DNA from: a virus
Lineage: Duplodnaviria > Caudoviricetes
Direction: 5' to 3' (one strand)
IMG/VR virus record: IMGVR_UViG_3300011832_000025
Length of the DNA stretch: 64,000 nucleotides
A program made the translations under genes and the position numbers. Position 1 is the stretch's first letter. Each line of letters opens with the position of its first letter. The notes beneath the pieces were generated by a model. It saw only the letters and a program-made list of their open reading frames with translations. It did no database searches and was not told the DNA's origin. This document shows, piece by piece, positions 5,417 through 58,580 of the stretch.

Positions 5417-6766
5417 ATGAGCATTGTGTTTCAAGATTCGTTGTCGCGCCAACTTCTGGCCGTTCCCCACGACACCACCACCCCCATTTCGTTTTACGCG
5501 TGCGGCATCACGCCCTATTCTGATGCCCACATTGGCCACGCCCGTTCGTTTGTGGTGTTCGACTTAATGCGCCGCGTACTGGAGACCGATGGCTACACTG
5601 TTAATTTGGTGCGCAATATCACCGACGTGGATGATAAAATTATTGCCCAGGCGGCCGCGCAAAATCGTCATTGGAAAGAGTTGGCGCATTCGTTTGCCGC
5701 CCAAAACCGCCAGTTGATGAGCGAAATGAATGTGGGACACTACGAAGAACCCGCCGCAAGCGAACACATTCCCGACATTATTGATTTGGTGGAACGTTTG
5801 ATTGCAAAGGGTCACGCTTATGTGGGCGAGAATGGGGATGTGTTGTATTCGGTCAAAAGTTTCCAAGGCGCCCCTCTCATGCCGCACGACTTGGACGATT
5901 TGGGCCACAACGGAGCACGAGTGCAACACGATGGCAAGCGCGACAACCATGATTTTGTGTTGTGGAAAGGCGCAAAACCCAACGAACCCTCGTGGCCTTC
6001 GCCGTGGGGCAATGGCCGACCAGGCTGGCATATCGAATGCTCAGCCATGATTGAAAAACGGTTTGGCGCAACCATTGATTATCATGGCGGTGGCACGGAT
6101 TTGCGTTTTCCCCACCACCAAGCGGAAATTCAACAAAGCGAGGCGGCGTACGACCGCCCCTTAGCTCACCGTTGGGTGCACCACGGGTCGGTGCGCGATG
6201 GACGGGGTCAAAAAATGTCCAAATCGTTGGGGAACGTGGTGTTGCTCAAAGACGCGTTGGCCAGCGCCGAATCCCTGGCGCCGGGCGCGGGGGGCGCGGT
6301 GTTGCGCCACGCCTTGCTCAGCGCGTTGTGGACCAAACCATTGGATTATTGGCCCGCCACAACGCTAAAAACTTCTGTGTCCCATCTCACCCAATGGAGC
6401 AAGGCCGCGCAAAAGGGTACTGTGTCCGCGCAGATGAACGAGCGTTTGACGGCCCCCTTGCGCGAAAATCTCAACACACCAAAGTTCTTTGCGCTGTTGC
6501 ATGAATTGAGTTCCGAAGCAAAACGTGGTTCTCAAGACGCCGCCGCGGCGGTATACGAAGGCCTTATTCGTTTGGGCGTGGCTGAAACCGCCATCGCCGC
6601 CCTCAAACACGAAGACGTGGTTGAAACTCCGCAACACATTCAAGATTTGCTCAATCAACGCGAGCAGCACCGACACAACCGTGATTTTGCCCAAGCGGAT
6701 GCGGTGCGTGATCAACTAAAGAAACTTGGATGGGGGGTGCAAGATAAACCACTGAAAATCAAATAA
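5417..6766 (+). CDS. cysS: cysteinyl-tRNA synthetase
   Basis: YACGITPY..HIGH, RNITDVDDKII, DFVLWK, GRPGWHIECSAM, GGGTDLRFPHH, KMSKSLGN. Confidence 0.95.
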   Translation: MSIVFQDSLSRQLLAVPHDTTTPISFYACGITPYSDAHIGHARSFVVFDLMRRVLETDGYTVNLVRNITDVDDKIIAQAAAQNRHWKELAHSFAAQNRQLMSEMNVGHYEEPAASEHIPDIIDLVERLIAKGHAYVGENGDVLYSVKSFQGAPLMPHDLDDLGHNGARVQHDGKRDNHDFVLWKGAKPNEPSWPSPWGNGRPGWHIECSAMIEKRFGATIDYHGGGTDLRFPHHQAEIQQSEAAYDRPLAHRWVHHGSVRDGRGQKMSKSLGNVVLLKDALASAESLAPGAGGAVLRHALLSALWTKPLDYWPATTLKTSVSHLTQWSKAAQKGTVSAQMNERLTAPLRENLNTPKFFALLHELSSEAKRGSQDAAAAVYEGLIRLGVAETAIAALKHEDVVETPQHIQDLLNQREQHRHNRDFAQADAVRDQLKKLGWGVQDKPLKIK

Positions 6767-16396: not shown

Positions 16397-16409
16397 AACT
16401 GCGGGGCCC

Positions 16410-17114
16410 TTATGGGCCCCACAGTGCATCAAACTTGCCTTTCATCACATCACTCATGCGCGCGCGTTTTCCCGTTTCGTGATCGCTCACCATATCCTCT
16501 TGGGCGCGGTAGGTGCGGCGTTTGTCGCCCCGCATTCCCGACCCCATCTGCTGAGTCCGCACACTATTGGCGTGATCCCATTGCGCCCGATTGTCCGCCG
16601 CGTCCAAATCTTGGATCAAAGCTTCCATCGCCAAGCGCACACTGTTGTCCCGTGATCGGGTTTGAGCTGTGCGCACCAAACCGGTGGGAAGGTGAACAAT
16701 CCGGGCGCTGGCTTGAACTTTGTTGCGGTTTTGCCCACCCGGGCCGGTTCCAGAGAAAAACGAAATGGAAAAATCATCCGCTTGGCGCTTGAGGTATTTT
16801 GGATCACTTTTGCTTTCGCCCAACACCGCAACGGTCACCGTTGAACTGTGCACCCGCCCCCGTTTTTCATTTGGAGGAATGCGTTGCACACGGTGACCTC
16901 CTCCTTCTGTACGGAAAACGTCCAAATTGGAGGACGAACCTTCAATGGTAATGGTCAAAAAAGAATGGCCCGCGCTCAAATCCAACGCAGGAGTGCAATG
17001 GGTCAGTCAACCTTTGTGGGTGGCCGCCAAAATATACGCCCGGCCCAACTGAGCCGCAAACAATCGAGCGTCTGCTCCGCCTTCTGCTGCGCGGAGTTCC
17101 AGTGTGAGTTTCAT
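16410..17114 (-). CDS. short RF1-like peptide chain release factor lacking domain 1, with in-frame UGA at codon 36 (17007-17009)
   Basis: RBS aaggag; MKLTLELRAAEGGADARLFA...HKG*LTHC... continues in the same frame to GHRVQRIPPNEKRGRVHSSTVTVAVL and GPGGQNRNK; 705 nt total. Confidence 0.85.
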
Positions 17115-17235
17115 AACTGTCTCCTTTACTCTGGCAAAAGCGCCAGTTGTTCCAGTATGACAAAAAGTTTCCCCAAAAACAAGTTGACAGAAAATTGTTT
17201 TTTGAAATACTTTCTTTTTGTTCAGGGAGGTGGAT

Positions 17236-34840: not shown

Positions 34841-34933
34841 GCAGAGGGCAAAACGGCGTTTTATTGAGAATGTCCCCTACCGATCTTACAACGCGGAACC
34901 GTCCCTTGGTTGCTGCACCTCAGGAAAACACGC

Positions 34934-35566
34934 ATGAGTGAAAAGCCCCTCAACAAAATGAAAACGCTGCTGAAAAACGCCGGAGCCAGCGCGCGCTGGT
35001 GGGAAACCAACCGTGAGGCGGCACAGAAATATGACATGGGGGTTTTTGCCCTGTTAATGCTGGTGGGAACAATCATCTTTGCCGTTCCCCTAACCGGAGC
35101 GTGGTGGGTAATGTCTTCTTCCAGTTTTTTAGAGGGTGGTCTCAAAATGTTAGCTGTGGCTGCTGGAGAGTTTGGTCTAATGACCGCGGCGGGATGGTTG
35201 TTTAAAAAAATGCACGCTTCTTTGCGTCAAAAATTCAAAGACGGGTGGGAATTGTTTGGGTTTGACTGCAAAATAGAATTTACGAGTTTCACCGCAGCCG
35301 AAATAAGTGAGAGAGTTTTGCGAGCTGCGCGTTCCATCCCTTTGCCCGAAGTTCAACATCTGCGGTCCAGTTTGGAAAAATTGCAGTCCGCCCCCTTGCC
35401 AAAATCCTGGTGGGCGCAAATGGAAACCGTCTTGAAAGAGATTGAAGACACATTGGACACGGTCCCTTTGCCCGTTTCTCCCCAATCGTTGGACGAAGTG
35501 TATGTGGAAATTGCCGAACATCTGGATCCCTCTCAAGTTGTTTCCAAAAACATGTTGAAATTGTAG
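34934..35566 (+). CDS. 2-TM membrane protein, LPxxWW family
   Basis: ARWW...LPKSWW...LDEVYVE; tail MLKL. Confidence 0.75.
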   Translation: MSEKPLNKMKTLLKNAGASARWWETNREAAQKYDMGVFALLMLVGTIIFAVPLTGAWWVMSSSSFLEGGLKMLAVAAGEFGLMTAAGWLFKKMHASLRQKFKDGWELFGFDCKIEFTSFTAAEISERVLRAARSIPLPEVQHLRSSLEKLQSAPLPKSWWAQMETVLKEIEDTLDTVPLPVSPQSLDEVYVEIAEHLDPSQVVSKNMLKL

Positions 35567-35599
35567 GGCAACTCCAAGAGCAACCGTAAGGAACAAGCT

Positions 35600-36226
35600 A
35601 TGTCGCATCAAATGGTAAAACACATGATTGAAAACGCCGACCGCGCCGCAAATCTTGTCGCGTCATCGCGTTGGATGAAAGCTCTCCGCTGGTTTTTGAG
35701 AAGTTGGGAATACAATATTCCCGCAATCGGGTTTGCCACGGGATTTGTATTGGCAGCTCTTCACGCGTTTCCGGATGTGTCCCAGTTAATCCGCCAGGGA
35801 GTTGACAGTTGGGTGCTTTCTCTTTTCGGGTACTTTTTTATTACGCCTTTTGTCGGCCTTGTTCTTTTTGGAGTGGGGCACCTTATTTGCTTAATCATGG
35901 CGACGTTTGAATGGTTGAAGATCGGTGAAACGGTGTACAGTGGTCCCGATATTGTGCAATTGGCGTCGGTGGAAGATAAAACCCAAGCTTTGAAAAATTT
36001 CAACCGAACCCAAGGAAAAGAGTGGGATGAATTGGCGCCGGCGTTGTACGCGTGCGCCACCCGCCACGACTTATCCATCGCGTGGTGGAAAGAGGTAAAC
36101 GACCAAATTCTGAACGTAGTCCCCGAAGAACCACCCTCTGTGGTGGAAGTGGTTGAAAAAACATTGGAAGAAGAGTTGGAAAACCGAATGCACGTCACGC
36201 CCACCCCCAAGAAAATGATTTTATAA
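35600..36226 (+). CDS. 2-TM membrane protein, LPxxWW family
   Basis: DLSIAWW; tail KKMIL. Confidence 0.75.
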   Translation: MSHQMVKHMIENADRAANLVASSRWMKALRWFLRSWEYNIPAIGFATGFVLAALHAFPDVSQLIRQGVDSWVLSLFGYFFITPFVGLVLFGVGHLICLIMATFEWLKIGETVYSGPDIVQLASVEDKTQALKNFNRTQGKEWDELAPALYACATRHDLSIAWWKEVNDQILNVVPEEPPSVVEVVEKTLEEELENRMHVTPTPKKMIL

Positions 36227-36235
36227 AGGACAGAT

Positions 36236-36889
36236 ATGCAAGAGCGTGTTTTTGAAAAAATGAAAACATTTTTCACCACAGACCCCGTTTTTCGTGCCTT
36301 AAGAAAAACCGAAAAATTGGCGGGTTGGACGCTGGGGTTGGGCACCCTAGCGGTTTTTGTGGTGTGGATCACCGGTGCGCATCATGGCGCTCTGTCCCCC
36401 GCAATCCCGTGGAATTTGAGTGGGGAGAGTTTGGAAACCGCAAGAACAACGGTTCACACCGTTGCGTCCATGCGTTTGTTCGGATTGTGGGTCTTGTGTG
36501 CATTTGTGGGAATGGGAGTTGTGGGCTTTATGGGAAATCGAGCTTATCGCCGCTTTCAACAAACCGTTTCCACCGCCCATACCCAGTTTTCGGTGGTGTT
36601 CGGCGATATTCCTGGTGAAGAGCTGGACGCAATAAAAAAGGAGATCGCAGGCTTTCTCACCGATTTGCAGGGCGAGGAATGGAATGAAGTTGCCGCTCTG
36701 GTGCGCCGCTCCTTAGACGAAAAAAATATTCCCCGCCAGTGGTGGAAACTGGTGCACAAAGAATTGTCCACTGCTGTGGTCCAACAAAAAGAAAACCCCC
36801 ACCGCCCCGCTGTGTATGCGGAATTTGACCACGCGTTGGAACAAGTGTATCGGCGCGGTCAAAACCACCTTCCAACGGTTAAAATTTAG
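36236..36889 (+). CDS. 2-TM membrane protein, LPxxWW family
   Basis: IPRQWW; LEQVY; tail TVKI. Confidence 0.75.
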   Translation: MQERVFEKMKTFFTTDPVFRALRKTEKLAGWTLGLGTLAVFVVWITGAHHGALSPAIPWNLSGESLETARTTVHTVASMRLFGLWVLCAFVGMGVVGFMGNRAYRRFQQTVSTAHTQFSVVFGDIPGEELDAIKKEIAGFLTDLQGEEWNEVAALVRRSLDEKNIPRQWWKLVHKELSTAVVQQKENPHRPAVYAEFDHALEQVYRRGQNHLPTVKI

Positions 36890-36956
36890 CTAATTTGAAC
36901 CCCGCAACAACACAACACTGCGCGCATTGCGCAAATAAATTCACCGGAGAACATGT

Positions 36957-37649
36957 ATGAGCAAAATGGACAACCCTTTAGCGGCCGCCACCCATCTGCT
37001 TGCGCAGCGCGAAGCTTTTCAACAGTGGAGCGATGGAGCAACCGCCCGTTGGCACAAGAAGTGGTTGGCCTCGCCCCGCACCAAGTTTGTGATGATGGGG
37101 GTGTTTGCCGCCGGGGTTTGTGGCGTGGCGCAAGGAATTAAGATAGCGGACATCGGGGGAACGGTTGGATTGGTGGGAGGGCTTGCCGTCATAATGTTGT
37201 CCTTAATCGTTCTCGGATGTGTAGTGGCCGACGATGCCAATGTGAAGATGTGGCTCAACCCTTGGCTCAACCGCCAGAGCAAAACATATGGGGTGACCTT
37301 CAACACCCATCACCCGCGCACCTTGTGGGGGGAGTATTCCCAAGACCAAAAGACCCACTTGCTGTCGCAAATGGCGCGATTGGATGAAAAGTGGGCGGCG
37401 GTTAAAGCCGAGGTGCTGTCTTTGGTCAACACTTCGGATCTGCCGTACGTATGGTGGCAGCAAATGGAGCAGGTGATTGAACAGGGATGGGAGCAACAAT
37501 ACGCCCGCAATTACCACCTCAACAAACACAATGAATTTCTTCGCGCGCAAAACAAAGTTGAAGCACAGATTCAACCGTCAGTGGATGTGGAAACAGGCGC
37601 CACGCCCCCAGTCGACCTCCCTGAAAAATCCACCAATATTTCTTTATAA
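36957..37649 (+). CDS. 2-TM membrane protein, LPxxWW family
   Basis: DLPYVWWQQME; close paralog of 37823. Confidence 0.75.
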   Translation: MSKMDNPLAAATHLLAQREAFQQWSDGATARWHKKWLASPRTKFVMMGVFAAGVCGVAQGIKIADIGGTVGLVGGLAVIMLSLIVLGCVVADDANVKMWLNPWLNRQSKTYGVTFNTHHPRTLWGEYSQDQKTHLLSQMARLDEKWAAVKAEVLSLVNTSDLPYVWWQQMEQVIEQGWEQQYARNYHLNKHNEFLRAQNKVEAQIQPSVDVETGATPPVDLPEKSTNISL

Positions 37650-37822
37650 ACCCACTGTAAAGCAGACATTTTCAAATCCAAAGGTGATCTTATTGATCTT
37701 TTGGCGTGTCAAGGGTGAGGTGCTGGTAAATCTCAAAAAAATGGGGCTTGAAAACGGCAAAGCGGACATGGTAAACTCCCCTGTCTGTTATTGCACGACT
37801 TTTCCCATTTTGAGGACCCATC

Positions 37823-38521
37823 ATGAGCAAAATCGCCGATCCGTTGACCGCCGCCACCCATCTGCTTGCGCAGCGCGAAGCGTTCCAAAAGTGGAGCCAA
37901 GGGCGGTTGGCCCGCTGGCACCAAAGCTGGTTGGGGGGCCTGACTCTCAACACAATCGGTGCTTTGTTTTCGGGGCTTTTGTCGTTAAGCGGCATTGCTC
38001 TAATGGCCATGGGTCTCTCCACGCACAATAAGGAGTGGGCCAGCCTAGGTATGGCCTTCGGCAGCGTCTTTGGGGGCGTGTGTATGGGAATGATGATTGA
38101 CAAGTGGTATTCAAGCTCCTGGTGCAACCCCCTCATTAACCACCAAAGCAAGAAATACCACGTGCGGTTCCACCACTTGCCCACGAAAACACTGTGGGGA
38201 GAGTACCCCCAGGAAAAGAAAACACAACTGCTGTCCCAAATGGCCCAGTTGGATGAACAGTGGGACACAGTTAAATCCACTGCGCTGGCGTTAATCGACA
38301 GCGCAGATTTGCCTTATGTGTGGTGGCAGCAAATGGAAGGGATCGTGGCCGCGGGGTTAACCCAACAGCAGCAGCAACAGATCCAAACCCACCAAAAAGA
38401 GGCGTTTCTCCGCGCCCAACAAAACGTGCAATTGCAAGTTCACTCCCCCAGCGTCGAAGTCCAGTCGGAGAGAAGTGTCGAAGCCCAAACCGATTATACG
38501 CCCAAAGGTTTGCGACTGTGA
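37823..38521 (+). CDS. 2-TM membrane protein, LPxxWW family
   Basis: AATHLLAQREAFQ shared with 36957; tail GLRL. Confidence 0.75.
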   Translation: MSKIADPLTAATHLLAQREAFQKWSQGRLARWHQSWLGGLTLNTIGALFSGLLSLSGIALMAMGLSTHNKEWASLGMAFGSVFGGVCMGMMIDKWYSSSWCNPLINHQSKKYHVRFHHLPTKTLWGEYPQEKKTQLLSQMAQLDEQWDTVKSTALALIDSADLPYVWWQQMEGIVAAGLTQQQQQQIQTHQKEAFLRAQQNVQLQVHSPSVEVQSERSVEAQTDYTPKGLRL

Positions 38522-38530
38522 GGAAAAACA

Positions 38531-39163
38531 ATGACAATTGAAACGATTCAGAAAATGCTTGCCGCCGCGCCCAACGTTGAACAATGGTGGAGCGCAAACA
38601 AAAAATCCATTAAACGCACCTTAACGCTGAGTGATTTGTGGGTCAATATATGTCTAATGGGGGGTCTTTTGTCTGTGTTCTCTACAGTGGGTTTCTTTAT
38701 GGCCAATTTTACCGTTGTTAAAAATCCACCGATTCCTATAGTGAGCTTTGCGGTTTCTACGGCTGGCGCGGTTGGATCTTTAGTGTTGATCGTGAGTGGG
38801 GGGTGGGTAATGCGTCGGATTTTACAACGGAAATACAAACAAGCTTCCGAGCAATGGGGTTTGGATCCGTTCACCAATCAAAAACTATCAGACGAACAGC
38901 GCGCGGGAATTGTTTCTGAGTTGAACGAGCTGATTTTCGATTGGGCAAAGACAGACGATTCAATGAAAATGACAACCCACCAGATTGAAAACATCCAACA
39001 TTTGGATCTTCCCACCCCCTGGTGGCGCAAATTGGAGAAAAATATCGCCTCCGCAAAAGAACAGTTGCGGCGCCAATTGGAAATCCCTCCTCCGTCTTTG
39101 GAGGATGTGTTTGTGTCCACAACCCATAAAGACGGCACCACGTCCAACGTCATGCGTTTGTAA
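38531..39163 (+). CDS. 2-TM membrane protein, LPxxWW family
   Basis: APNVEQWW...DLPTPWW...LEDVFV; tail VMRL. Confidence 0.75.
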   Translation: MTIETIQKMLAAAPNVEQWWSANKKSIKRTLTLSDLWVNICLMGGLLSVFSTVGFFMANFTVVKNPPIPIVSFAVSTAGAVGSLVLIVSGGWVMRRILQRKYKQASEQWGLDPFTNQKLSDEQRAGIVSELNELIFDWAKTDDSMKMTTHQIENIQHLDLPTPWWRKLEKNIASAKEQLRRQLEIPPPSLEDVFVSTTHKDGTTSNVMRL

Positions 39164-39237
39164 CCGTCTATCAATTATCACTTAGCTCTATTAAATAGGA
39201 TGTTTCATTCTCTAAAACACTAAGGCAAAGGATCTTT

Positions 39238-39834
39238 ATGTCGTACGAAAAAATCAACGAACTAATAGAACAAGCCCCCGAGGTGTCGCAATGGTGGGCC
39301 TCCAACAAGCGAGCATTAAACTGGTGGTGTGTTGGCAGCATAGCCGTAATTTTTCCAATATTTTTGATGACATTTTTAAGCGTGGCGGCCACTGTCGTGT
39401 GGTCTGGAATGTGGTTGGCCGGACAGGTTCCCGCCGACAAATACTGGATGTTAATTTCTGCACCGTTGGTGTCCTTGTGTGGTATAGGTGTAATAAAATT
39501 TGGTCGCAAATTTCGGCCAAAACGCTTCACATACAAAGGTTTTACCTTAGCAAGATTTGCTGAATCTGAGAGTGTGTCGCTCGCGTTTACCCACAATGTT
39601 TTAAGCAAAGCTGTCAATCTCGGGGATCCCCAGATCAAGCCCATTTTGGCAAAATTGCACGCCCTCAAAAACACCGATTTGCCCAAATGTTGGTGGCAAT
39701 CCCTGGGTAAAGAATTAGACAAACACGCCCGTCCCCCGGTGAACACAAGCGCGCAAGAACAGTTGGAAGCGGTGTATGTCCAAATGGAAGACCTGTCCGT
39801 TGACCAACCCACCCCCAAAGTGTTCCGTCTGTAA
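39238..39834 (+). CDS. 2-TM membrane protein, LPxxWW family
   Basis: APEVSQWW...DLPKCWW; tail VFRL. Confidence 0.75.
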   Translation: MSYEKINELIEQAPEVSQWWASNKRALNWWCVGSIAVIFPIFLMTFLSVAATVVWSGMWLAGQVPADKYWMLISAPLVSLCGIGVIKFGRKFRPKRFTYKGFTLARFAESESVSLAFTHNVLSKAVNLGDPQIKPILAKLHALKNTDLPKCWWQSLGKELDKHARPPVNTSAQEQLEAVYVQMEDLSVDQPTPKVFRL

Positions 39835-39846
39835 GGGAAAATAAGT

Positions 39847-40467
39847 ATGGAAAATCTCGAGAAAATGTTGGCCAACGCTCCCCAAGTGGCTCAGTGGTGG
39901 GAAACACATCGAAAAACAATTGAAGTTTACTTGAAACGCACAGTAAAAAGAGAACGGCGTATAAACACATGGATGGTGTGTTTGGCGTCGGTTGGGTCGG
40001 TGGCATATCTGCCGTACATAGCTGGGGTGTTCTCCCCCGGCCTCATCAATGACTTCGCTCTAACAATGTTGGAGTTGTGTGTGGTGATTGGCTTGGGTGG
40101 GTTTTTTGGCGCATGGGGCGCAGCAACAGTCATTGAACGTCGCAGCCAAGCTTCCCTCGCCCACCACTACAAACAAGCTGACCCATGTTGGCGGCTTGTT
40201 CCCAGCCGTGAGCGGCAAGAATTTTCTCAAGACGACCGTGCAAAAATGGTCAAGGAACTGAGTGATTTGGGGGTAAACCCTCACCACATTGTTGCGCTGC
40301 GCGATTTGGATCTCCCCAATTCCTGGTGGCACGCGATCAACGAAGAAGTGGGCCGCGCCAAACAGGAACAAAAACAGACAGCCCAATCCGCTCCGACTTT
40401 AGAAGAGGTGTTTGTTCAAGTAGAGAACCACGCCAAAATCCCCACAACACATGTATTGCGTCTTTAA
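39847..40467 (+). CDS. 2-TM membrane protein, LPxxWW family
   Basis: APQVAQWW...DLPNSWW; tail VLRL. Confidence 0.75.
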   Translation: MENLEKMLANAPQVAQWWETHRKTIEVYLKRTVKRERRINTWMVCLASVGSVAYLPYIAGVFSPGLINDFALTMLELCVVIGLGGFFGAWGAATVIERRSQASLAHHYKQADPCWRLVPSRERQEFSQDDRAKMVKELSDLGVNPHHIVALRDLDLPNSWWHAINEEVGRAKQEQKQTAQSAPTLEEVFVQVENHAKIPTTHVLRL

Positions 40468-40485
40468 TTTTAAAAGGAAAAACCC

Positions 40486-41076
40486 ATGACAATTGAAACC
40501 ATTCAAAAAATGATCAGCGACGCGCCCGCGGCGTCCAAATGGTGGGGTCAACACCACTTCAAAATCGTGCGCAGTAAAAAAATACGCGCGTGGGTCTCTT
40601 GTGTGTTCGCAGTGGGGACGGTGGGCTCCATCCTGGGGTTTTTGTTTGAAGACGATCCCCTTCTCTCAATGCTGTATTTGGTGGGGGTGATTGGGTTGAT
40701 GGTGGCGGGAATAGTGTGCGAAGAGTTCATTTCCAAGGAATACCGCCGCGGTTTAAACATGTTGCATTTGTTCTACCTGAGAAATTTGGAAATTCCGGCC
40801 ACCAGCGAGCACCAAGAGCCGGTGTTTCGTGTGCTGTTGAAAACCCAAAGCAAAACCCTTCAACAGTGCGGCAAAGATCTGCTGGCGTTACGCAACGCTC
40901 CATTGCCCGCTGTGTGGTGGGTGGCGCTGCACGAACACATTGAAGCGGTGATCGCTCAAGACAAGCAAGAAGCGATGTGGGCGGGTTTGTCTCAGCAAAT
41001 TGAGCAAGCGGGCTCTTCCCTCTCCCAAAGCGAAAAAGGCGGAGAAAATTATGAATGGGTCAGCGATCAGCCATGA
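40486..41076 (+). CDS. 2-TM membrane protein, LPxxWW family
   Basis: MTIETIQKM (as in 38531)...LPAVWW. Confidence 0.75.
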   Translation: MTIETIQKMISDAPAASKWWGQHHFKIVRSKKIRAWVSCVFAVGTVGSILGFLFEDDPLLSMLYLVGVIGLMVAGIVCEEFISKEYRRGLNMLHLFYLRNLEIPATSEHQEPVFRVLLKTQSKTLQQCGKDLLALRNAPLPAVWWVALHEHIEAVIAQDKQEAMWAGLSQQIEQAGSSLSQSEKGGENYEWVSDQP

Positions 41077-41639
41077 ACAAATCCCTTGAAAGAATGAGAG
41101 AACTGTTGCAAAGCGCCCACGCCACCTCAGTGTGGTGGCAAAAAAACAAAAAATCCGCCCAACGGTTTGCGTTGTGGCGGAGCACTTTGGGAGCCGCTTG
41201 GCACTTCATAACGTTTGTTCTGGCCATGAGCGGGTATCTCTGGCTCAGCGTGTCCTCCTCAGGTGTTTTGGTGGATGGCGTGAAAATAGCGGCGTTTTCC
41301 CTCGTCGTCGCGCTGTGGGTGATTGTATGCATTAAAGCTTCTCATCGGTTTGACCGGTATATGTTCCAACGGTTTGAGGAAGGGTGCGCGTTGTGCGGTT
41401 TCGATTATATGTTGGAAGGCACCGTGTTTTTATCGGAGAACAAATTTACCCCGCAAAAACAAGAGGACGATGTGGTCAACAATGTCTTGCGCGCTGTAAA
41501 CACTATGGAGCTTGCAGAGGTTCAACATCTGCGGCCCCATCTGGAACAGTTGCGCACCACAGATTTGCCTCGATCGTGGTGGTATCATATGCAAACGGCG
41601 GTGAAAGATGTACAGAACTCCGCTAAAACAAATCGATGA
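41073..41639 (+). CDS. 2-TM membrane protein, LPxxWW family
   Basis: EVQHLR...DLPRSWW; closest to 34934. Confidence 0.75.
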   Translation: MNKSLERMRELLQSAHATSVWWQKNKKSAQRFALWRSTLGAAWHFITFVLAMSGYLWLSVSSSGVLVDGVKIAAFSLVVALWVIVCIKASHRFDRYMFQRFEEGCALCGFDYMLEGTVFLSENKFTPQKQEDDVVNNVLRAVNTMELAEVQHLRPHLEQLRTTDLPRSWWYHMQTAVKDVQNSAKTNR

Positions 41640-44152: not shown

Positions 44153-44229
44153 GGACCCGATAGTTTAATTGGCAAAACGTTCCCACTTTATAGGGAAAGA
44201 CATTGGTTCGAAACCATTTTGGGTCCCCA
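44153..44229 (+). tRNA. atypical tRNA: G-1/C73 (His-like), 8-nt anticodon loop ACTTTATA (possible UUA anticodon)
   Basis: GACCCGA/TTGGGTC acceptor, TTCCC/GGGAA stem, TTCGAAA T-loop, encoded CCA. Confidence 0.7.
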
Positions 44230-47663: not shown

Positions 47664-47740
47664 ACGTCGGTAGCTCAATCGGCAGAGCACTCCCGCAAAT
47701 AAGGGAAAGGTTGTAGGTTCAACTCCTACCTGGCGTGCCA
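47664..47740 (+). tRNA. atypical tRNA with 8-nt anticodon loop GCAAATAA, isotype undetermined
   Basis: ACGTCGG/CTGGCGT-G-CCA; intact D and T arms; TCCC/GGGA stem. Confidence 0.7.
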
Positions 47741-50097: not shown

Positions 50098-50175
50098 GCG
50101 TCAATAGCTCAATTCAGGCAGAGCAAAATTCTCCAAAAATTTAGGTTGGGGGTTCGAGTCCCTCTTGGCGCGCCA
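50098..50175 (+). tRNA. tRNA-Trp(CCA) with all-AU anticodon stem
   Basis: AAATT-CT-CCA-AA-AATTT, G73-CCA. Confidence 0.88.
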
Positions 50176-50204
50176 AGTCATTGTTTTTGTTATATTTTTT
50201 TAAT

Positions 50205-50275
50205 ACGTCGTTCGTCCAAGGGTAGGACCCCTGACTCCAAATCAGGTAATGAGAGTTCGAATCTTTCACGGCGTG
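50205..50275 (+). tRNA. tRNA-Trp(CCA) with Glu/Gln-type D-arm; no encoded CCA
   Basis: ACGTCGT/ACGGCGT, GTCC/GGAC D-stem, CCTGA-CT-CCA-AA-TCAGG. Confidence 0.85.
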
Positions 50276-50340
50276 AAATTTTTTAAGTGTTGATATTGTC
50301 CTTCAAAAATGCTATAAAATAGCAAAAATGGAGGCGCAGT

Positions 50341-51845: not shown

Positions 51846-52424
51846 GTGTGCATTGAAGAAAACACCAATTTGCTAATTGAGGCGGCCCGAAAGGGTGACA
51901 CCCCAGAGGTGCAACGTCTTATTCCCTTATCCGATCCAACATGTAATGACAGTCAAGCTTTGGTTTGCGTTGCATCAGGAGGGCACACCCAATGCGTGAG
52001 ACTGCTGATCCCAGTCTCTGTTCTCAAAAGTCCTGCTTTGAATCTGGCCGCTGGAAAGGGGTACACCCAATGCGTAAAGTTGTTACTCCCCGCATATGAT
52101 CTCAAAGCTAAAAGTAGCGCTCTGTTTTGGGCCACAGCCAACGGACACACGGATTGCGTCAAACTGTTGATCCTGGCATCAGACCCCAAGGTTGACAACA
52201 GTTTTGCATTACAAAAAGCTGTTGCAAACGCTCATCAATCCTGCATTGATCTGTTGTATTCCGTCAGTGATCCACACGCAGCACTGCATCAACTGCAACA
52301 GGATTACCCCGATGATGTGAGTATATGGGGTGAATTGGAACAGCGGATTGCCCACGAACAAAACCAAAAGTTGGTCGGCGAAATTGGTGAGACTGTGCGC
52401 GCAAAAATCGACCGCAAAATGTGA
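51846..52424 (+). CDS. ankyrin-repeat protein (array member 1)
   Basis: AL..AA..GHT.CV.LLIP repeats; tail DRKM. Confidence 0.85.
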   Translation: MCIEENTNLLIEAARKGDTPEVQRLIPLSDPTCNDSQALVCVASGGHTQCVRLLIPVSVLKSPALNLAAGKGYTQCVKLLLPAYDLKAKSSALFWATANGHTDCVKLLILASDPKVDNSFALQKAVANAHQSCIDLLYSVSDPHAALHQLQQDYPDDVSIWGELEQRIAHEQNQKLVGEIGETVRAKIDRKM

Positions 52425-52459
52425 TACACTGATCCATTATCAATTGGAATTTTCGTTCA

Positions 52460-53050
52460 ATGTCCATTAAAAAAAACACAAAATTGCTAATTGAAGCAGC
52501 TCAGGCGGGTAACACCACAGAAGTGCAACGTCTTATTTCGATCTCCGACCCCCAATTTGAAGACAGTAAAGCGTTAATTTGTGCCGCCGCCGCCGGCCAC
52601 GCAGAATGCGTAAAGCTATTGATTCCCGTTTCTGATCCGAACTCCAGAAACAGTGAAGCGTTAATTTTTGCTGCCGCCGCAGGCCATACAGAATGTGTCA
52701 AATTGTTAATTCCTGTCTCAAATCCAAAAGCCAACGGCAGTCAAGCTTTACGCGCTGCTGCGGGATATGGGCATACGGAAGAATGCGTCAAACTTCTTAT
52801 TCCCGTCTGCGATCCAAAAAGCCACAACAGTTTTGCGTTGCAACGATCTTACCACAATAATAATACAACCTGCATTGATCTGTTATACCCTGTGAGTGAT
52901 CCACACGCAGCACTGTATCAACTGCAACAGGATTATCCCGATAATGAAAATGTATGGGGTGAATTGGAACGCCGCATTGCGCACGAACAAAACCAAAAGT
53001 TAAGCGTAGAGATTGATTGTGGCCGTCCAAAAATCGACCGCAAAATGTGA
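52460..53050 (+). CDS. ankyrin-repeat protein (array member 2)
   Basis: Same repeats; tail DRKM. Confidence 0.88.
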   Translation: MSIKKNTKLLIEAAQAGNTTEVQRLISISDPQFEDSKALICAAAAGHAECVKLLIPVSDPNSRNSEALIFAAAAGHTECVKLLIPVSNPKANGSQALRAAAGYGHTEECVKLLIPVCDPKSHNSFALQRSYHNNNTTCIDLLYPVSDPHAALYQLQQDYPDNENVWGELERRIAHEQNQKLSVEIDCGRPKIDRKM

Positions 53051-53083
53051 TACACTGATTCACCATCAATTGAAATTTTCGTT

Positions 53084-53936
53084 ATGTCCATTGAACAAAA
53101 TGCACAATGGTTAATGTACGCGGCGCGGGTGGGAGATGCCGACGAAGTTCAGCGTCTCAATTCCCTTGTGTAATCCCAAATCCGAAGCCAGTTATGCACT
53201 GCGAACGGCTTCCAACAATGGGCACACAGAATGCGTCAAGCTGCTCATCCCAGTATCGGATCCTCACGCCGACAAAAGTGGGGCTTTGCGCTGGGCGGTG
53301 GGCAATAACCATATTGAATGTCTCACATTGTTAATTCCCGTGTCAGACCCCAAAGCCGACGAAAGTTTTGCGTTACGTATTGCCGCTCAAAAAGGTCAGA
53401 CAGAGTGTGTCAGATTATTGATTCCCGTCTCCAATCCGAAGGCCATGAACAGCGAGGAATTGCGTGAGGCGGCTAAAAATGGTCATACAGAATGTGTCAA
53501 ACTCTTAATTCCCGTCTCCGACGTGAAAGACAAAGACAGCGCAGCTCTTTGTGAGGCCGCTAAGAACGGTCATACAGAATGTGTCAAACTCTTAATTCCT
53601 GTGTCGGATCCCACATCCGACAACAGCGCAGCACTGTTTTGGGCGACCGCAAAACGTCAGACAGAGTGTGTGAAATTGTTGCTTCCCATCTCAGATCCGA
53701 AGGCAATGGACAGCGCAGCACTGCGTGTGGCGGTATACAAAGGCTATAAAGATTGTATTAAATTGTTGTATCCACTAAGTGATCTACACGCAGCGCTGTA
53801 TGTCTTGCAATACCAAAATCCTGGTAATGTCAAAATGTGGGGGTGGTTGGAACAACAAATTGCGCACGAGCAAAATCAAATATTGGGCAAAGAGATTGTT
53901 ACGGCAGAAAAGAGCAATGTCTCACGCAAAATATGA
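53084..53936 (+). pseudogene. ankyrin-repeat gene (member 3) with +1 frameshift near 53160
   Basis: MSIEQNAQWLMYAARVGDADEVQRL, then an extra A (ctc-a-att-ccc) before IPLCNPK in another frame; tail SRKI. Confidence 0.8.
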
Positions 53937-53975
53937 TACAATGGTGGAATGCATCGCCATCAAATCTTAATGTTC

Positions 53976-54827
53976 ATGTCCATCTCAAAAAACGACCAAT
54001 TGCTAATTGAAGCGGCCAAACTGGGCAACGTGTCGCAAGTGAGGCAGCTCATTCCATTATCCAATCCACAAGCCAAAGACAGTGAAGCGTTGAGGGTGGC
54101 GGCAAAAAACGGCCACACAGAATGTGTGGAATTGTTGATCCCGGTTTCTAACCCACATATTAAAGACAATGAAGCCTTACGTTGGGCGGCCAAATATGGG
54201 TACACAGAATGCGTACGTTTGCTTATTCCTGTATCGGATCCAAAACATAATAACAGTTCCGCGTTAATTGCGGCGGCGAGTTATGGCCACACTCAATGTG
54301 TGGAATTGTTGATCCCTATATCCGACGCAAAAGAACAAGACAGTGCAGCTTTGCGCTGCGCTGCTTACAATGGTCATACCGACTGCGTCAAGTTGCTCAT
54401 CCCCGTATCGGACCCTTATGCTGATTGCAGTGCAGCTTTGCGTTCCGCTGCATCCAAGGGGCACGCCAACTGTGTTCAATTGCTCATCCCCGTATCGGAC
54501 CCTTATACTGATGGCAGTGCAGCTTTGCGTTACGCTGCTTACAATGGTCAGACAGAATGCGTAAAGTTGTTGATCCCTGTTTCCGACCCGAAAGATTACA
54601 ATAGCTGCGCTCTGCAGTTTGCGGTGATATACAATTATTTTTCCTGCATTGATCTGTTGTATCCGATGAGTGATCCCCACGATGCACTTCATGAACTGCA
54701 ACACGATTACCCCGATGATGTGAGTATATGGGGTGAATTGGAACGCCGCATTTTCCAAGATCAACGCGACAAGTTAAACGATCGGGTCGGTGAAGTTGCA
54801 CGCGCAAAAAATGTTCGCAAAATGTAA
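53976..54827 (+). CDS. ankyrin-repeat protein (member 4)
   Basis: About 7 repeats; tail VRKM. Confidence 0.88.
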   Translation: MSISKNDQLLIEAAKLGNVSQVRQLIPLSNPQAKDSEALRVAAKNGHTECVELLIPVSNPHIKDNEALRWAAKYGYTECVRLLIPVSDPKHNNSSALIAAASYGHTQCVELLIPISDAKEQDSAALRCAAYNGHTDCVKLLIPVSDPYADCSAALRSAASKGHANCVQLLIPVSDPYTDGSAALRYAAYNGQTECVKLLIPVSDPKDYNSCALQFAVIYNYFSCIDLLYPMSDPHDALHELQHDYPDDVSIWGELERRIFQDQRDKLNDRVGEVARAKNVRKM

Positions 54828-54909
54828 CGTCATTTTCCTGAACCAATCGCTTTATGCTTGCCCCAACTATACCAGACTTGGTTGACCGACCTTTGGCTTG
54901 CAAGCTACA

Positions 54910-55899
54910 ATGGCTTCTCCTGTCCAACCCCCTTTTCCTGTGGCCGATGAATACATCGAACCCCTGAGCGACCGTATAGAGATGGCGCTGGTGGACACAA
55001 TCGCCTGGTTGTGGAGAACGGCAGCTTGGGCGGTGATTGCTCTGGGTATCATTCCCTTTCCACCATTTCAGTGGTGGGCGCTGTACACCGCCGTCAGCCA
55101 CGGGCGCACCCGCACGGTCAAGCTCCTGGGGCGGCGTTGGGTGTTTGCGTGGATGCCTGCATCGGTGAACGCGACAATTATGTTGAGGGCGGGGTACCGC
55201 GCCAGCAAATCCCACAGCACAATTGCCAACAAACAGATTTTCACATGGCTGCTCACCCATGGCGGGGTCATCAGTCAAAAAAGTTTTGATCAAGGGTGGT
55301 TGTACACGTACTTTAGTTTCAGCTCGTTTGCCTGCTTGGAAAATTGGGCGGAACGGGCCATTGAACACAACGCAATTGCCGACGACACAAAATACGATTT
55401 GCTCTTGAATTGCATTGAACACAGTTATTATGGCAACCCATACATTGACCACAACCCCAGATACATGGCTTTGTGCATGTCAATGCTTGAAAAGTGGGGG
55501 GCGTTTTTTCACACAGTGCAAGAAGATGAAGAATTGCGTGTCAACTTGTGGAATGCCGTGGTCAAAGGTGGAAGCCCAGAAACAATGAACACATTGTTGC
55601 GTCATACGTCTGCGTCTCATGTTTTAAATATCATGGAGCGTGTTGGAAACTCTAAAAAATGCACAGTGGAAACGCTTAACGCCGTGGCCACCCATATGGA
55701 TGTGCATGACATGCTCCACCAATTGCACAAAAATGCCAGCACTCAATTTTACCGCAATCCACCCGATTTTGAAACATGGCTATCCAACAATTTTCGTTTG
55801 AGTGAAGCGTATAGTGCGTATTGCAACCAACAGCAAAACGCACGCTTGCGCCAGCATATTGAAGAGTTCAAACCACCCGCTTCCAAACGCAAAATGTGA
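54910..55899 (+). CDS. hypothetical protein inside the ankyrin array, tail KRKM
   Basis: Long ORF with N-terminal hydrophobic segment. Confidence 0.7.
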   Translation: MASPVQPPFPVADEYIEPLSDRIEMALVDTIAWLWRTAAWAVIALGIIPFPPFQWWALYTAVSHGRTRTVKLLGRRWVFAWMPASVNATIMLRAGYRASKSHSTIANKQIFTWLLTHGGVISQKSFDQGWLYTYFSFSSFACLENWAERAIEHNAIADDTKYDLLLNCIEHSYYGNPYIDHNPRYMALCMSMLEKWGAFFHTVQEDEELRVNLWNAVVKGGSPETMNTLLRHTSASHVLNIMERVGNSKKCTVETLNAVATHMDVHDMLHQLHKNASTQFYRNPPDFETWLSNNFRLSEAYSAYCNQQQNARLRQHIEEFKPPASKRKM

Positions 55900-55936
55900 T
55901 ACAATGGTCAAATCCATTGTGATTAAGAGTTTCCTT

Positions 55937-56614
55937 ATGTCCTTTGAAGAAAACAGGGTATTGTTAATTAAAGCGATCCAAAACGGAAACGTACAAGAAG
56001 TGATCCGCTTAATTCCTTTCTCAGACCCAAAATTCAACGGAAGTGAAGCCTTGAGTGTTGCTGCCGAATGTGGCCAGGTAGAATGTGTCAAGTGTTTAAT
56101 TCCGGTTTCTGATCCGAAAGCCAATAATAGCAGCGCACTCCAGTGCGCGGCAACGCAGGGCTATGCAGAATGCGTCAAACTCCTTATTCCCCTCTCCGAT
56201 GCGAAAGGAGAGGGCAGCCTGGCACTGCGTTATGCCACCCTAAATGGTCACGCAGAATGTGTCAGGTTGTTAATCCCTGTCTCTGATCCGGGTGTCCATA
56301 ACAGCATTATGTTGCAACAGGCGGCAAATGGTGGTCATACAGAATGCGTAAAGTTGTTAATCCCTGTTTCTGATCCAAAAGCCAACAACAGTGCTGCTTT
56401 ACGAGCTGCTGTTTGGCGTAATCACACAACTTGCATTGATCTGTTGTACCCTGTCAGTGACCCACATGCTGCTCTTCATCAATTGCAACTGAACCATCCT
56501 GGTAATGTCAATGTGTGGGGGAACTTTGAACAACGGATTGCACAAGAGCAAAATAAAAAATTAAACAACGAAATTCGTCAACCAGAAAATCCCACGATTG
56601 TTCGCAAAATGTGA
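55937..56614 (+). CDS. ankyrin-repeat protein (member 5)
   Basis: Same repeats; tail VRKM. Confidence 0.88.
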   Translation: MSFEENRVLLIKAIQNGNVQEVIRLIPFSDPKFNGSEALSVAAECGQVECVKCLIPVSDPKANNSSALQCAATQGYAECVKLLIPLSDAKGEGSLALRYATLNGHAECVRLLIPVSDPGVHNSIMLQQAANGGHTECVKLLIPVSDPKANNSAALRAAVWRNHTTCIDLLYPVSDPHAALHQLQLNHPGNVNVWGNFEQRIAQEQNKKLNNEIRQPENPTIVRKM

Positions 56615-56647
56615 TACCCTGGTGTACACTTTATTAAAATTTTTCTC

Positions 56648-57152
56648 ATGTCTATTGAAGAAAACACAAAATTGTTAATTGAAGCGGCTGAAAAAGGTGA
56701 CGCGGCAGCCGTTCAACGTCTCATTCCAATCTCTAATCCCAAAGCAAAGAACAGTAAAGCTCTGGTTTCATCCGTGTCCCAGGGGCACACCGAGTGCGTA
56801 AAGTTGTTAATCCCCGTCTCCAATCCCAAAAGCAGCCGGCAGCCAAGCGTTGTCTTACGCCGCTCAACAGGGCCACATTAAATGCGTAAAATTGTTAACT
56901 CCTGTGTCTAATCCCAAAGCCCATAAAAGTGCTGCTCTGTGCCGCGCAATTCAATCGGGTCACACACAAGTTGCTGAACTGTTGTATCCCGTCAGTGATC
57001 TCCACGCAGCCCTTCATCAATTGCAACGCGATTACCCCACCCGAAGAGAAATCTGGGAAGGGTTGGAACTGCGCATTGCCCAAGAGCAAAAGCAAAAATT
57101 GAACAAAGAGATTGGCACAAGGCAAACCCCCACGGGTGTACGCAAAATATGA
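56648..57152 (+). pseudogene. ankyrin-repeat gene (member 6) with +1 frameshift in A-run at 56828-56831
   Basis: NPK, then an extra A, then AAGSQALSYAAQQGH in the next frame; tail VRKI. Confidence 0.8.
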
Positions 57153-57188
57153 TACAATCGGAGAATACATTATAATCAAAATCCCATC

Positions 57189-57866
57189 ATGGCGATTAAA
57201 GAAAACACCCAGTTATTGCTTCAGGCGGCGCGGGAAGGCAACGCCGCGGAAGTTCAACGTCTGATTCCTGTGTCTTATCCGAAATTCAGCGAAAATGCGG
57301 CGTTGTGTTATGCCGCAAGATACGGCCACACCGAATGCGTCCGGCTATTGATTCCCGTATCGAACCCCTCTGCGAATGGAAGGGCGGCTTTGCGGGACGC
57401 CGCAGAACACGGCCACACCGAATGCGTTCGACTGCTCATTCCCGTCTCCAACCCCAAGGCGGAAAACAGCATGGCTTTGCGTTTGGCGGCGGAGCATGGG
57501 CACACGGAATGCGCGCGGTTGCTCATTCCCGTGTCCGAGCCCACCGCCGCTGAAAGCGTGGCCCTGTATTATGCGGTATACGGTGGCCACATCGAATGCG
57601 TCCGGCTGCTCATTCCTGTATCAAATCCAAAAGACAATACCAGTGTTGCTTTACGACAAGCTTGTCATAATAATGACGCAATCTGCATCGATCTGTTGTA
57701 TCCCGTCAGCGACCCGCATGAAGCTCTTCATCACATGCAAACGTATTACCCCGATGACGTGAATGCGTGGGAAGAGTTGGAACAACGTATTGCCCAAGAA
57801 CAAAGGCAAAAATTGAACAGCGAAATGGGTGAGGCCAAACCAACAGAAATAAAACGCAAAATGTGA
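57189..57866 (+). CDS. ankyrin-repeat protein (member 7)
   Basis: Same repeats; tail KRKM. Confidence 0.88.
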   Translation: MAIKENTQLLLQAAREGNAAEVQRLIPVSYPKFSENAALCYAARYGHTECVRLLIPVSNPSANGRAALRDAAEHGHTECVRLLIPVSNPKAENSMALRLAAEHGHTECARLLIPVSEPTAAESVALYYAVYGGHIECVRLLIPVSNPKDNTSVALRQACHNNDAICIDLLYPVSDPHEALHHMQTYYPDDVNAWEELEQRIAQEQRQKLNSEMGEAKPTEIKRKM

Positions 57867-57905
57867 TACAATCGGGAAACGCATTTTGCTCCCGAGACTT
57901 CTGGT

Positions 57906-58580
57906 ATGTCCATCGAAAAAAACACCCAATTGCTGGTCGACGCTGCGCGAAAAGGCCACAGCGCGGAAGTGTTGCGGCTTATCCCCATGTCCAATCCAAG
58001 CTACAATTACAACAGCGCTTTAAAAGAGGCGGCCCTGAAAGGCAAAACGGAATGTGTCAAATTGCTCATTCCCTTCTCCAATGTTAAAGACAACAACAAT
58101 GCTTTGTATTGGGCGGCAAGCAGAGGCCACACCGAATGTGTTCGCTTGCTCATTCCGGTGTCCGATCCCTGCGCCGATCAAAGTCACGCCTTAAGAATTG
58201 CTTCCGCAAACGGCCACACCCAATGTGTGAAGTTGCTCATTCCGGTAAGCGGGTCCAAAGCGCGACAAAATTTTGCCTTGCGCCTGGCGGCCACCAAAGG
58301 TCAAACGGCCTGTGTTGAATTGCTTATTCCTGTGTCCGACCCCAAAGTATTCGACAGTCAAGCTCTGCAAGAGGCTATTAAACACGACCACCCCGCCTGC
58401 GCGACTTTGCTTTATCCGGTCAGCGATCTTGCGCGCGCTTTGTGGGCTTTGCAACGCGATTACCCCAACCGAAGGGAAATCTGGGAAGATCTGGAACAAC
58501 GCATTGCCCAAGAGCAAAAGCAAAAATTGAACGAAGAGATTGGCGACGCGGGCGGGGGGAAAATCTCACGGAGAATGTGA
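57906..58580 (+). CDS. ankyrin-repeat protein (member 8)
   Basis: Same repeats; tail SRRM. Confidence 0.88.
   Translation: MSIEKNTQLLVDAARKGHSAEVLRLIPMSNPSYNYNSALKEAALKGKTECVKLLIPFSNVKDNNNALYWAASRGHTECVRLLIPVSDPCADQSHALRIASANGHTQCVKLLIPVSGSKARQNFALRLAATKGQTACVELLIPVSDPKVFDSQALQEAIKHDHPACATLLYPVSDLARALWALQRDYPNRREIWEDLEQRIAQEQKQKLNEEIGDAGGGKISRRM

Follow-up and report, generated by a model that had tools for sequence, protein, structure and literature searches.

Is an in-frame UGA codon near the start of a phage release factor gene a defect, or is it part of the way in which the gene is expressed? This question is raised by a locus in IMG/VR virus record IMGVR_UViG_3300011832_000025 (Duplodnaviria; Caudoviricetes), of which a stretch of 64,000 nucleotides was analysed (the window). 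A short RF1-type release factor gene that lacks domain 1 lies on the minus strand at positions 16410..17114 and has 234 codons including the in-frame UGA. All features of this gene are on the minus strand. A Shine-Dalgarno sequence, AAGGAG (17121..17126), is found 6 nt ahead of the ATG at 17114. Codons 1 to 35 (Met1 to Gly35, 17010..17114) correspond to the first strand and helix of RF domain 2, and the ATG lies five codons ahead of the start of this domain. Codon 36 is the UGA (17007..17009), which stands within GGU UGA C and takes the place of an ancestral Trp codon. It is followed in the unchanged frame by 198 sense codons (16413..17006) for the rest of domain 2 and for domains 3 and 4, including the codon recognition tripeptide PPN (residues 80-82, 16869..16877), which replaces the PxT of RF1, and an intact GGQ catalytic motif (residues 126-128, 16731..16739). 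The frame is open from the UGA to the TAA stop codon at 16412..16410, which is overlapped by an intrinsic-terminator-like hairpin with a T run (16398..16425; 12 pairs, 9 of them G-C; from a consensus scan only). On the 5′ side, an intergenic region of about 100 nt separates the gene from a divergent gene. Reading the minus strand thus confirmed the layout given in the original prediction, namely the Shine-Dalgarno sequence, the ATG at 17114, 35 RF-like codons, GGT-TGA-CTG, about 200 further in-frame codons, and GGQ. The same is true of its remark on gene calling, as the table-11 ORF list shows only the downstream piece of the gene (191 aa, 16410..16985).

What kind of release factor would the gene encode? 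When the TGA is translated as Trp, the 234-aa product matches the Pfam PCRF model at positions 102-194 of 194 together with the RF-1 domain, and the NCBIfam prfA model at positions 106-334 of 347 only, in agreement with the predicted absence of domain 1. The RF1 models (168 bits) outscore the RF2 model (97 bits). The RF1 scores lie below the equivalog cut-offs (168 bits against 400 for NF001859 and 160 against 423 for TIGR00019), and the shortfall from the cut-off of 400 results from the lack of domain 1. The alignment with solved E. coli RF1 chains is free of gaps and places the UGA at the Trp of '...EARRW...'. This Trp position, which had been predicted, is also evident from the best 80 bacterial matches in species-representative genomes, which are ordinary cellular RF1 genes with at most 42% identity and a sense codon at the site, TGG in 73 of the 80. 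An AlphaFold2 model of the 234-aa product has a pLDDT of 88 and resembles ribosome-bound RF1 with a TM score of 0.88 and an rmsd of 2.6 Å. Thus, GGQ and, in the model, the fold of RF1 domains 2-4 are both present in the product. The RF1-type flanks of the recognition loop (QRxP..E..GR.H[ST]S) are kept, while PPN swaps Thr for Asn. The PPN noted in the original prediction is present in the window gene but is not a trait of the family, since 78 of the 89 related genes described below have PPT and only four have PPN. PrfH and ArfB are class-I release factor relatives that likewise have no N-terminal domain. Both identities were rejected for the window factor, whose decoding loop is of the RF1 type and whose scores are far under the family cut-offs (42 bits against 166.65 for PrfH and 15.4 bits against 100 for ArfB). 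The TM score of the model to PrfH is 0.62, well under that to RF1.

Is the UGA conserved? DNA was retrieved for 170 loci on viral and metagenome contigs, and the site was defined as the codon 30 positions past the Glu of the E[IL]RxxEGG motif (the Trp column). This DNA comparison left out the closest relatives (89% identity, P0003 to P0007) and the Trp-bearing database proteins (P0010 and similar), and 103 of its loci, 89 of which are distinct, have TGA at the Trp column (109 in a tblastn-based count). The 89 distinct homologues are viral or metagenomic, share 42-56% identity with the window gene, and never have TAG or TAA at this column. All loci with at least 42% identity have TGA, save three short uninterrupted genes (with Phe, Val, or Leu) and L125, in which the Trp column has TGG and a TGA is found two codons on (L125:4001-4660, G-W-A-stop-L), as though the gate had shifted its position. 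A single internal stop codon is present in each of the 89 genes, which are otherwise intact and have 210-239 codons. Their remaining Trp codons are TGG, as in the window gene, and their true stop codon is TAA in 83 cases. Of the 89, 86 have an SD-like motif ahead of the start, and 78 begin with ATG. Neither a conserved restart codon nor a conserved SD sequence was found after the UGA in the homologues, where 4 to 148 codons separate the UGA from the first in-frame start.

Both sides of the UGA are under purifying selection. Across 36 independent pairs with a dS of about 1, dN/dS is 0.10 in the 30 aligned codons before the UGA and 0.06 in the 30 codons after it. The TGA genes form a single clade apart from the cellular RF1 clade, with support of 99 to 100 (FastTree local support 99; SH-aLRT 99 when the tree was limited to residues downstream of the site). 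It was also found that the TGA site of the window is letter-identical in contigs of four independent studies. Thus, the TGA is not an assembly or sequencing error, and with 89 homologues carrying it, it is not a fresh nonsense mutation either. The comparison of homologues that had been proposed as a check therefore came out in favour of the prediction. It supports the view that the UGA is a conserved and selected recoding site and not a defect or a pseudogene lesion. In protein searches, many relatives appeared as 160-198 aa fragments spanning only the downstream 70-80% of the protein, and one database cluster holds many 35-aa 'release factor' fragments. On their sequences, these two sorts of fragments can be regarded as the signature of the same interruption in other genomes. 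Ten large relative genomes have one RF-domain gene each, and a second RF gene was not found in them. A megablast search of the window region against deposited phages gave no match. Metagenomes from fermentation, estuary, and indoor sites are rich in the phage.

The sequence around the UGA was compared with that around genuine TGA stop codons of the window and of two relatives, G002 and G003. Of the 89 genes, 65 have an A directly after the internal UGA, 14 a C, 10 a G, and none a T, while T follows the genuine stop in 69 of 214 cases (Fisher test, P = 8e-13; the counts share phylogeny, and the P values overstate the evidence). In E. coli, termination is most efficient where U follows the stop codon and is less so where the last residue is small. 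The codon before the UGA is GGN (Gly) in 86 of the 89 internal sites but in only 2 of the 214 genuine stops. Since this Gly is ancestral in RF1, only part of the context need have been selected for leakiness. Where Leu follows the UGA, its codon is CTN in 14 of 14 cases, while TTR makes up 43% of the Leu codons elsewhere in these genes. Judging from such comparisons, the UGA context in the clade looks selected. As for the UGA-C context, to which the original prediction had pointed as a weak stop, the C is found in the window gene but is not general in the family; what is conserved is the absence of T.

The sequences after the UGA were also examined for an RNA structure that might promote readthrough. 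The window fold, 76 nt around and after the UGA, is no better than its shuffles (z = -0.20), and thus nothing past the local context was seen that would raise readthrough there. A structure common to the whole family was not found after the UGA in the 89 homologues. Over the 89 homologues taken together, the 60 nt after the UGA are the most structured stretch of the gene, with a mean z of -1.29 against -0.2 to -1.0 elsewhere. One large subclade, to which the window does not belong, has a 12-pair helix beginning 13 nt past the UGA with five covarying pairs, and 94% of the cells are paired in this helix against 27-47% with the partners slid. The window itself has a terminator-like hairpin of eight pairs and a T run at 16969-16991, 16 nt past the UGA. 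This hairpin would suit an attenuator coupled to readthrough, but it is not significant (z = -0.20) and was rejected as a feature of the family, since only 5 of the 89 homologues have it, much as in three control stretches (0-4 of 89).

A different arrangement was found in a sister clade. L045, L047, L049, and L087 form a clade of their own and have a prfB-like cassette one codon past the Trp column. Their N-terminal 31 codons lie one base behind the rest, so that a +1 shift is needed, and the shift sites are CTT TAG in L045 and L047, CTT TGA in L049, and CTT TAA in L087. An SD-like GGAGG is located upstream of the CUU-stop in three of the four loci. A prfB-type +1 cassette was rejected for the window gene, where GGT TGA CTG contains no CUU and the sequence continues in frame 0. 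Since two recoding mechanisms occur at the same place in the family, it can be argued that selection acts on the competition with release factors. The CUU-UAG sites (L045:3877-3995 and L047:3895-4010) contain the RF1-specific stop codon, which according to a survey of prfB is never seen in prfB cassettes (PMC12421855). A CUU-UAG cassette would let an RF1-type factor sense RF1-type activity; if true, prfB autoregulation would have its first counterpart for a factor of the RF1 type.

Does this phage use UGA as a sense codon in general? Code use was judged by ORF-tiling density and by merge counts. Under table 11, window ORFs of at least 90 aa reach a density of 0.87, and 25 or 26 of these ORFs, which number about 73, end in TGA, with the stop codon overlapping the next start as ATGA or GTGA in some cases. 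G002 and G003, which are complete 363-kb relatives with terminal repeats, have a TGA usage like that of the window. In all three, 35-40% of the genes end in TGA, reading TGA as sense gains little, and in-frame TGAs linking two long segments are no commoner than such TAAs. UGA recoding is specific to the release factor gene in the window phage. Since the genome otherwise uses TGA as a stop codon, the full-length factor needs readthrough. As for TAG, this trinucleotide is strongly depleted in the window (451 on both strands, against 1448 TAA and 2021 TGA) and ends just 8 of about 73 long ORFs. A 524-kb relative, G005 (L294:5515-5591 and L297-L300), has a tRNA(UCA), and the ORF density of an 80-kb sample of this genome rises from 0.74 under table 11 to 0.86 with TGA as sense. 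G005 may be partly TGA-recoded and yet keeps the UGA in its release factor gene.

The window has 12 tRNA genes. None of them is a tRNA(UCA), and two are tRNA-Trp(CCA) genes, as predicted. The one at 50098..50175 (plus strand) has an anticodon stem of five A-U pairs and C11-G24; the other, at 50204..50276 (plus strand), has a normal anticodon stem, C9, and the predicted U11-A24. Both are candidate UGA readers. The suggested link of the latter to the Hirsh suppressor is weak: U11-A24 is the commonest 11:24 state of phage tRNA-Trp genes (14 of 23) and is therefore not diagnostic of a suppressor. Two tRNA-like genes of the window (44154-44229 and 47664-47740; Rfam 45-46 bits) have 6-nt anticodon loops according to ARAGORN, which leaves them without assignment (Lys/Stop and Phe/Ile); opening the last stem pair gives 8-nt loops. 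Among the relatives, a 27:43 mismatch, which leaves a 4-bp anticodon stem, is present in 7 of 23 tRNA-Trp(CCA) genes against 88 of 743 other tRNA genes (P = 0.017), and in L100 such a tRNA-Trp gene lies 18 nt upstream of the release factor start. A tRNA-Trp(CCA) whose stem has 4 bp reads UGA in E. coli (PMC13092985). The complete genomes G001, G002, and G003 have only canonical tRNA-Trp(CCA) with a 5-bp stem, and tRNA(UCA) was not found in them. No tRNA-Trp was found within the parts of G006 that were examined, and no gene of the TrpRS/TyrRS class (PF00579) in G001-G005. The release factor gene of relatives is found within or close to tRNA arrays. However, tRNA-Trp makes up about 2% of the tRNAs near it (26 of 907 calls, 23 of 773 distinct), which is no enrichment over a rough expectation based on about 45 anticodon types. 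A link between phage tRNAs and UGA decoding is suggestive at most.

Other translation genes were observed in the window and its relatives. A permuted tmRNA gene adjoins the short release factor gene in several loci (L106:4660-5173, L119:4660-5123, L140:5194-5650, L145:5092-5472, L153:5174-5595, and L124:1524-1957). Thus, termination and rescue genes are clustered inside the tRNA arrays of these relatives. Huge-phage relatives with the standard code have tRNA(CUA) amber suppressors (L269:3408-3482, L277:17384-17460, L290:4529-4603, L292:4950-5023, L304:4868-4944, L305:4214-4286, and L140:7851-7926). The 27:43 mismatch is present in 6 of 9 suppressor-type tRNAs (CUA or UCA) against 88 of 743 others (P = 2e-4). 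The window has a cysteinyl-tRNA synthetase gene (5417-6766; Pfam tRNA-synt_1e, E = 1.6e-101), which together with the tRNA arrays fits a huge phage investing in translation. Two tandem arrays of paralogous ORFs of about 190-290 aa were also seen in the window: one with six copies that share 47-62% mutual identity (51846-58580), and a more diverged one with 23-34% identity (34910-41639).

How, then, would the release factor be made? I consider it fairly probable, from the comparison of sequences, that programmed UGA readthrough, probably as Trp, ties the domain-1-less RF1-type factor to the balance between RF2 and tRNA-Trp. Translation would start at the ATG at 17114. At codon 36, host RF2 would compete for the UGA with a near-cognate tRNA, most likely tRNA-Trp(CCA) of the host or the phage. 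Ribosomes that insert an amino acid, probably Trp as the ancestral residue, would continue in frame and produce the 234-aa factor, while those that terminate would release a 35-residue peptide. The amount of the factor would then reflect the ratio of UGA readthrough to RF2-mediated termination, and the finished protein would most likely act like RF1 at UAA and UAG. The inserted residue, the level of readthrough, the sensing of RF2, and the stop-codon specificity of the factor are what I infer here. UGA is the leakiest bacterial stop codon, and more RF2 leads to less UGA readthrough (PMC4989110). The predicted control of expression by readthrough agrees with the conserved, selected UGA and the purifying selection around it, while the stronger claim, according to which weak UGA termination in the host is a precondition for making the factor, is plausible. 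The prfB-like cassette of the sister clade strengthens this idea. On the other hand, an RF1-type factor cannot itself relieve a deficit of UGA termination, which leaves RF2 sensing with no obvious purpose, and the sequence would look alike if the gate merely kept expression low. More tentatively, and with somewhat more doubt than belief, it may be proposed that large phages have a 'termination-capacity sensor', in which a recoding site measures host release factor activity and sets the output of a domain-1-less, possibly RF3-independent RF1. I would extend this proposal, with the same reserve, to both the UGA readthrough and the prfB-like +1 shift at UAG, UGA, or UAA.

A rival explanation, which overlaps with readthrough governed by the RF2/tRNA-Trp balance, is that the UGA is decoded mainly by phage tRNAs, either variants of tRNA-Trp or, in some relatives, tRNA(UCA). 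The factor would then be made only once the tRNA array of the phage is expressed, and the UGA would be a timing switch that senses no RF2. The position of the release factor gene in or near tRNA arrays of relatives would suit such a switch, as would the two tRNA-Trp genes of the window (one with an all-A-U anticodon stem, the other with C9 and U11-A24), the tRNA(UCA) of G005, and the 4-bp stem in 7 of the 23 tRNA-Trp(CCA) genes, including the L100 copy 18 nt upstream of the release factor gene, given that this stem permits UGA reading in E. coli (PMC13092985). It was considered rather unlikely, because G001, G002, and G003 manage with canonical tRNA-Trp and without tRNA(UCA), the examined parts of G006 have no tRNA-Trp, a PF00579 gene is missing from G001-G005, and tRNA-Trp is no commoner near the release factor gene than roughly expected. 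Furthermore, general suppression of UGA would lengthen the 35-40% of phage proteins whose genes end with it. Less likely still is plain attenuation, according to which the UGA senses nothing and only restricts a truncated, possibly harmful release factor to a few percent of the initiation events. A strong SD sequence and an ATG combined with a leaky stop codon would indeed give a low, fixed output, and overexpression of release factors can harm cells (PMC12421855). A weak ribosome binding site would serve equally well, however, and since the exact codon, its context, and, in the sister clade, a termination-sensitive frameshift cassette are all conserved, it can be argued that the competition with release factors is itself under selection.

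Gene callers give exactly two pieces, and purifying selection on both parts would also fit two real products, a peptide of 35 aa and a protein of about 190 aa with a start of its own. This was judged very improbable: no start or SD sequence is conserved past the UGA (the first in-frame start being 4-148 codons off), the break would divide domain 2 after its first helix and ahead of the strand that follows, and the stop codon stands exactly at the ancestral Trp and is always the one that tRNA-Trp can read. Even harder to credit is an alternative code (code 4), in which UGA generally means Trp for the phage or its host. There are known cases of TGA-recoded phages with an RF1 gene (Borges et al. 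preprint), and G005 has a tRNA(UCA) and gains in density (from 0.74 to 0.86) with TGA as sense; in the window, however, TGA ends 25 or 26 of about 73 ORFs, some of them by ATGA or GTGA overlaps, the table-11 density is already 0.87, no tRNA(UCA) is present, and the other Trp codons of the release factor gene are TGG. Finally, an artefact, a fresh nonsense mutation, or a selenocysteine codon would account for the presence of a stop codon and for nothing beyond it. The contigs of four studies, the TGA of 89 homologues, and the dN/dS on either side speak against the first two, and the Trp column, the lack of a SECIS hairpin just past the UGA and of any family-conserved structure there, and the window z of -0.20 against the last; the chance of any of the three is negligible.

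If the proposal of a termination-capacity sensor is true, no earlier case would be known in which programmed readthrough controls a release factor of the bacterial type. If programmed UGA readthrough is confirmed, it would provide a natural compact UGA-readthrough element for bacteria and would show how termination in the host is monitored or reshaped by large phages. It would also be a plausible early step to TGA recoding, because the relatives span canonical tRNA-Trp, tRNA-Trp with a 4-bp stem, and tRNA(UCA). Annotation pipelines miss the release factor gene, as the callers split or truncate it into 35-aa and 160-198-aa fragments.

Control of a release factor gene by an internal stop codon is textbook knowledge, but no case is known besides that of RF2, and none that works otherwise than by frameshifting. 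The prfB gene is autoregulated by a +1 programmed frameshift at CUU UGA C, at codon 26, with the help of an SD-like element. The window gene resembles prfB in that a class-I release factor gene has an early conserved stop codon and its output would follow the recognition of that stop, and the prfB cassette itself is used by the sister clade of the window's phage family. It differs in that the UGA would be read through without a change of frame and without a CUU, and that its site, a Trp codon, belongs to domain 2, while that of prfB lies in domain 1. Moreover, the window factor is viral and of the RF1 type, so that at UGA it would not be its own sensor. The A1 protein of the RNA phage Qbeta is produced by programmed UGA readthrough by tRNA-Trp. 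Here, too, a phage product is made only if a normal tRNA-Trp reads UGA in competition with RF2, but in Qbeta the readthrough extends the C-terminus of a protein that also works without it, whereas the window release factor without readthrough would be a 35-residue fragment.

Programmed recoding is known for prfB and none for prfA (PMC12421855). A full-text literature search found no description of a UGA-interrupted phage RF1 gene. Huge phages carry RF1 or RF2 genes (Al-Shayeb et al. 2020, PMC7162821), and the best phage-database matches of the window release factor are huge-phage genomes of that study. According to the passages searched, these phages likewise have genomes of hundreds of kb, tRNA arrays, tmRNA, and release factor genes; the same passages list release factors and mention neither an internal stop codon nor a missing domain 1. 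The TGA-recoded Jade phages have a code-change module of a suppressor tRNA, TrpRS, and RF1 (Borges et al., bioRxiv 10.1101/2021.08.26.457843). Their RF1 gene is in the standard code and has no internal stop codon, while many late genes are recoded. In the window phage, TGA is a stop codon, no tRNA(UCA) is present, and a PF00579 gene was not found in five complete relatives. What the Jade phages and the window phage would have in common is a phage-encoded RF1 in a setting where UGA is decoded as Trp.
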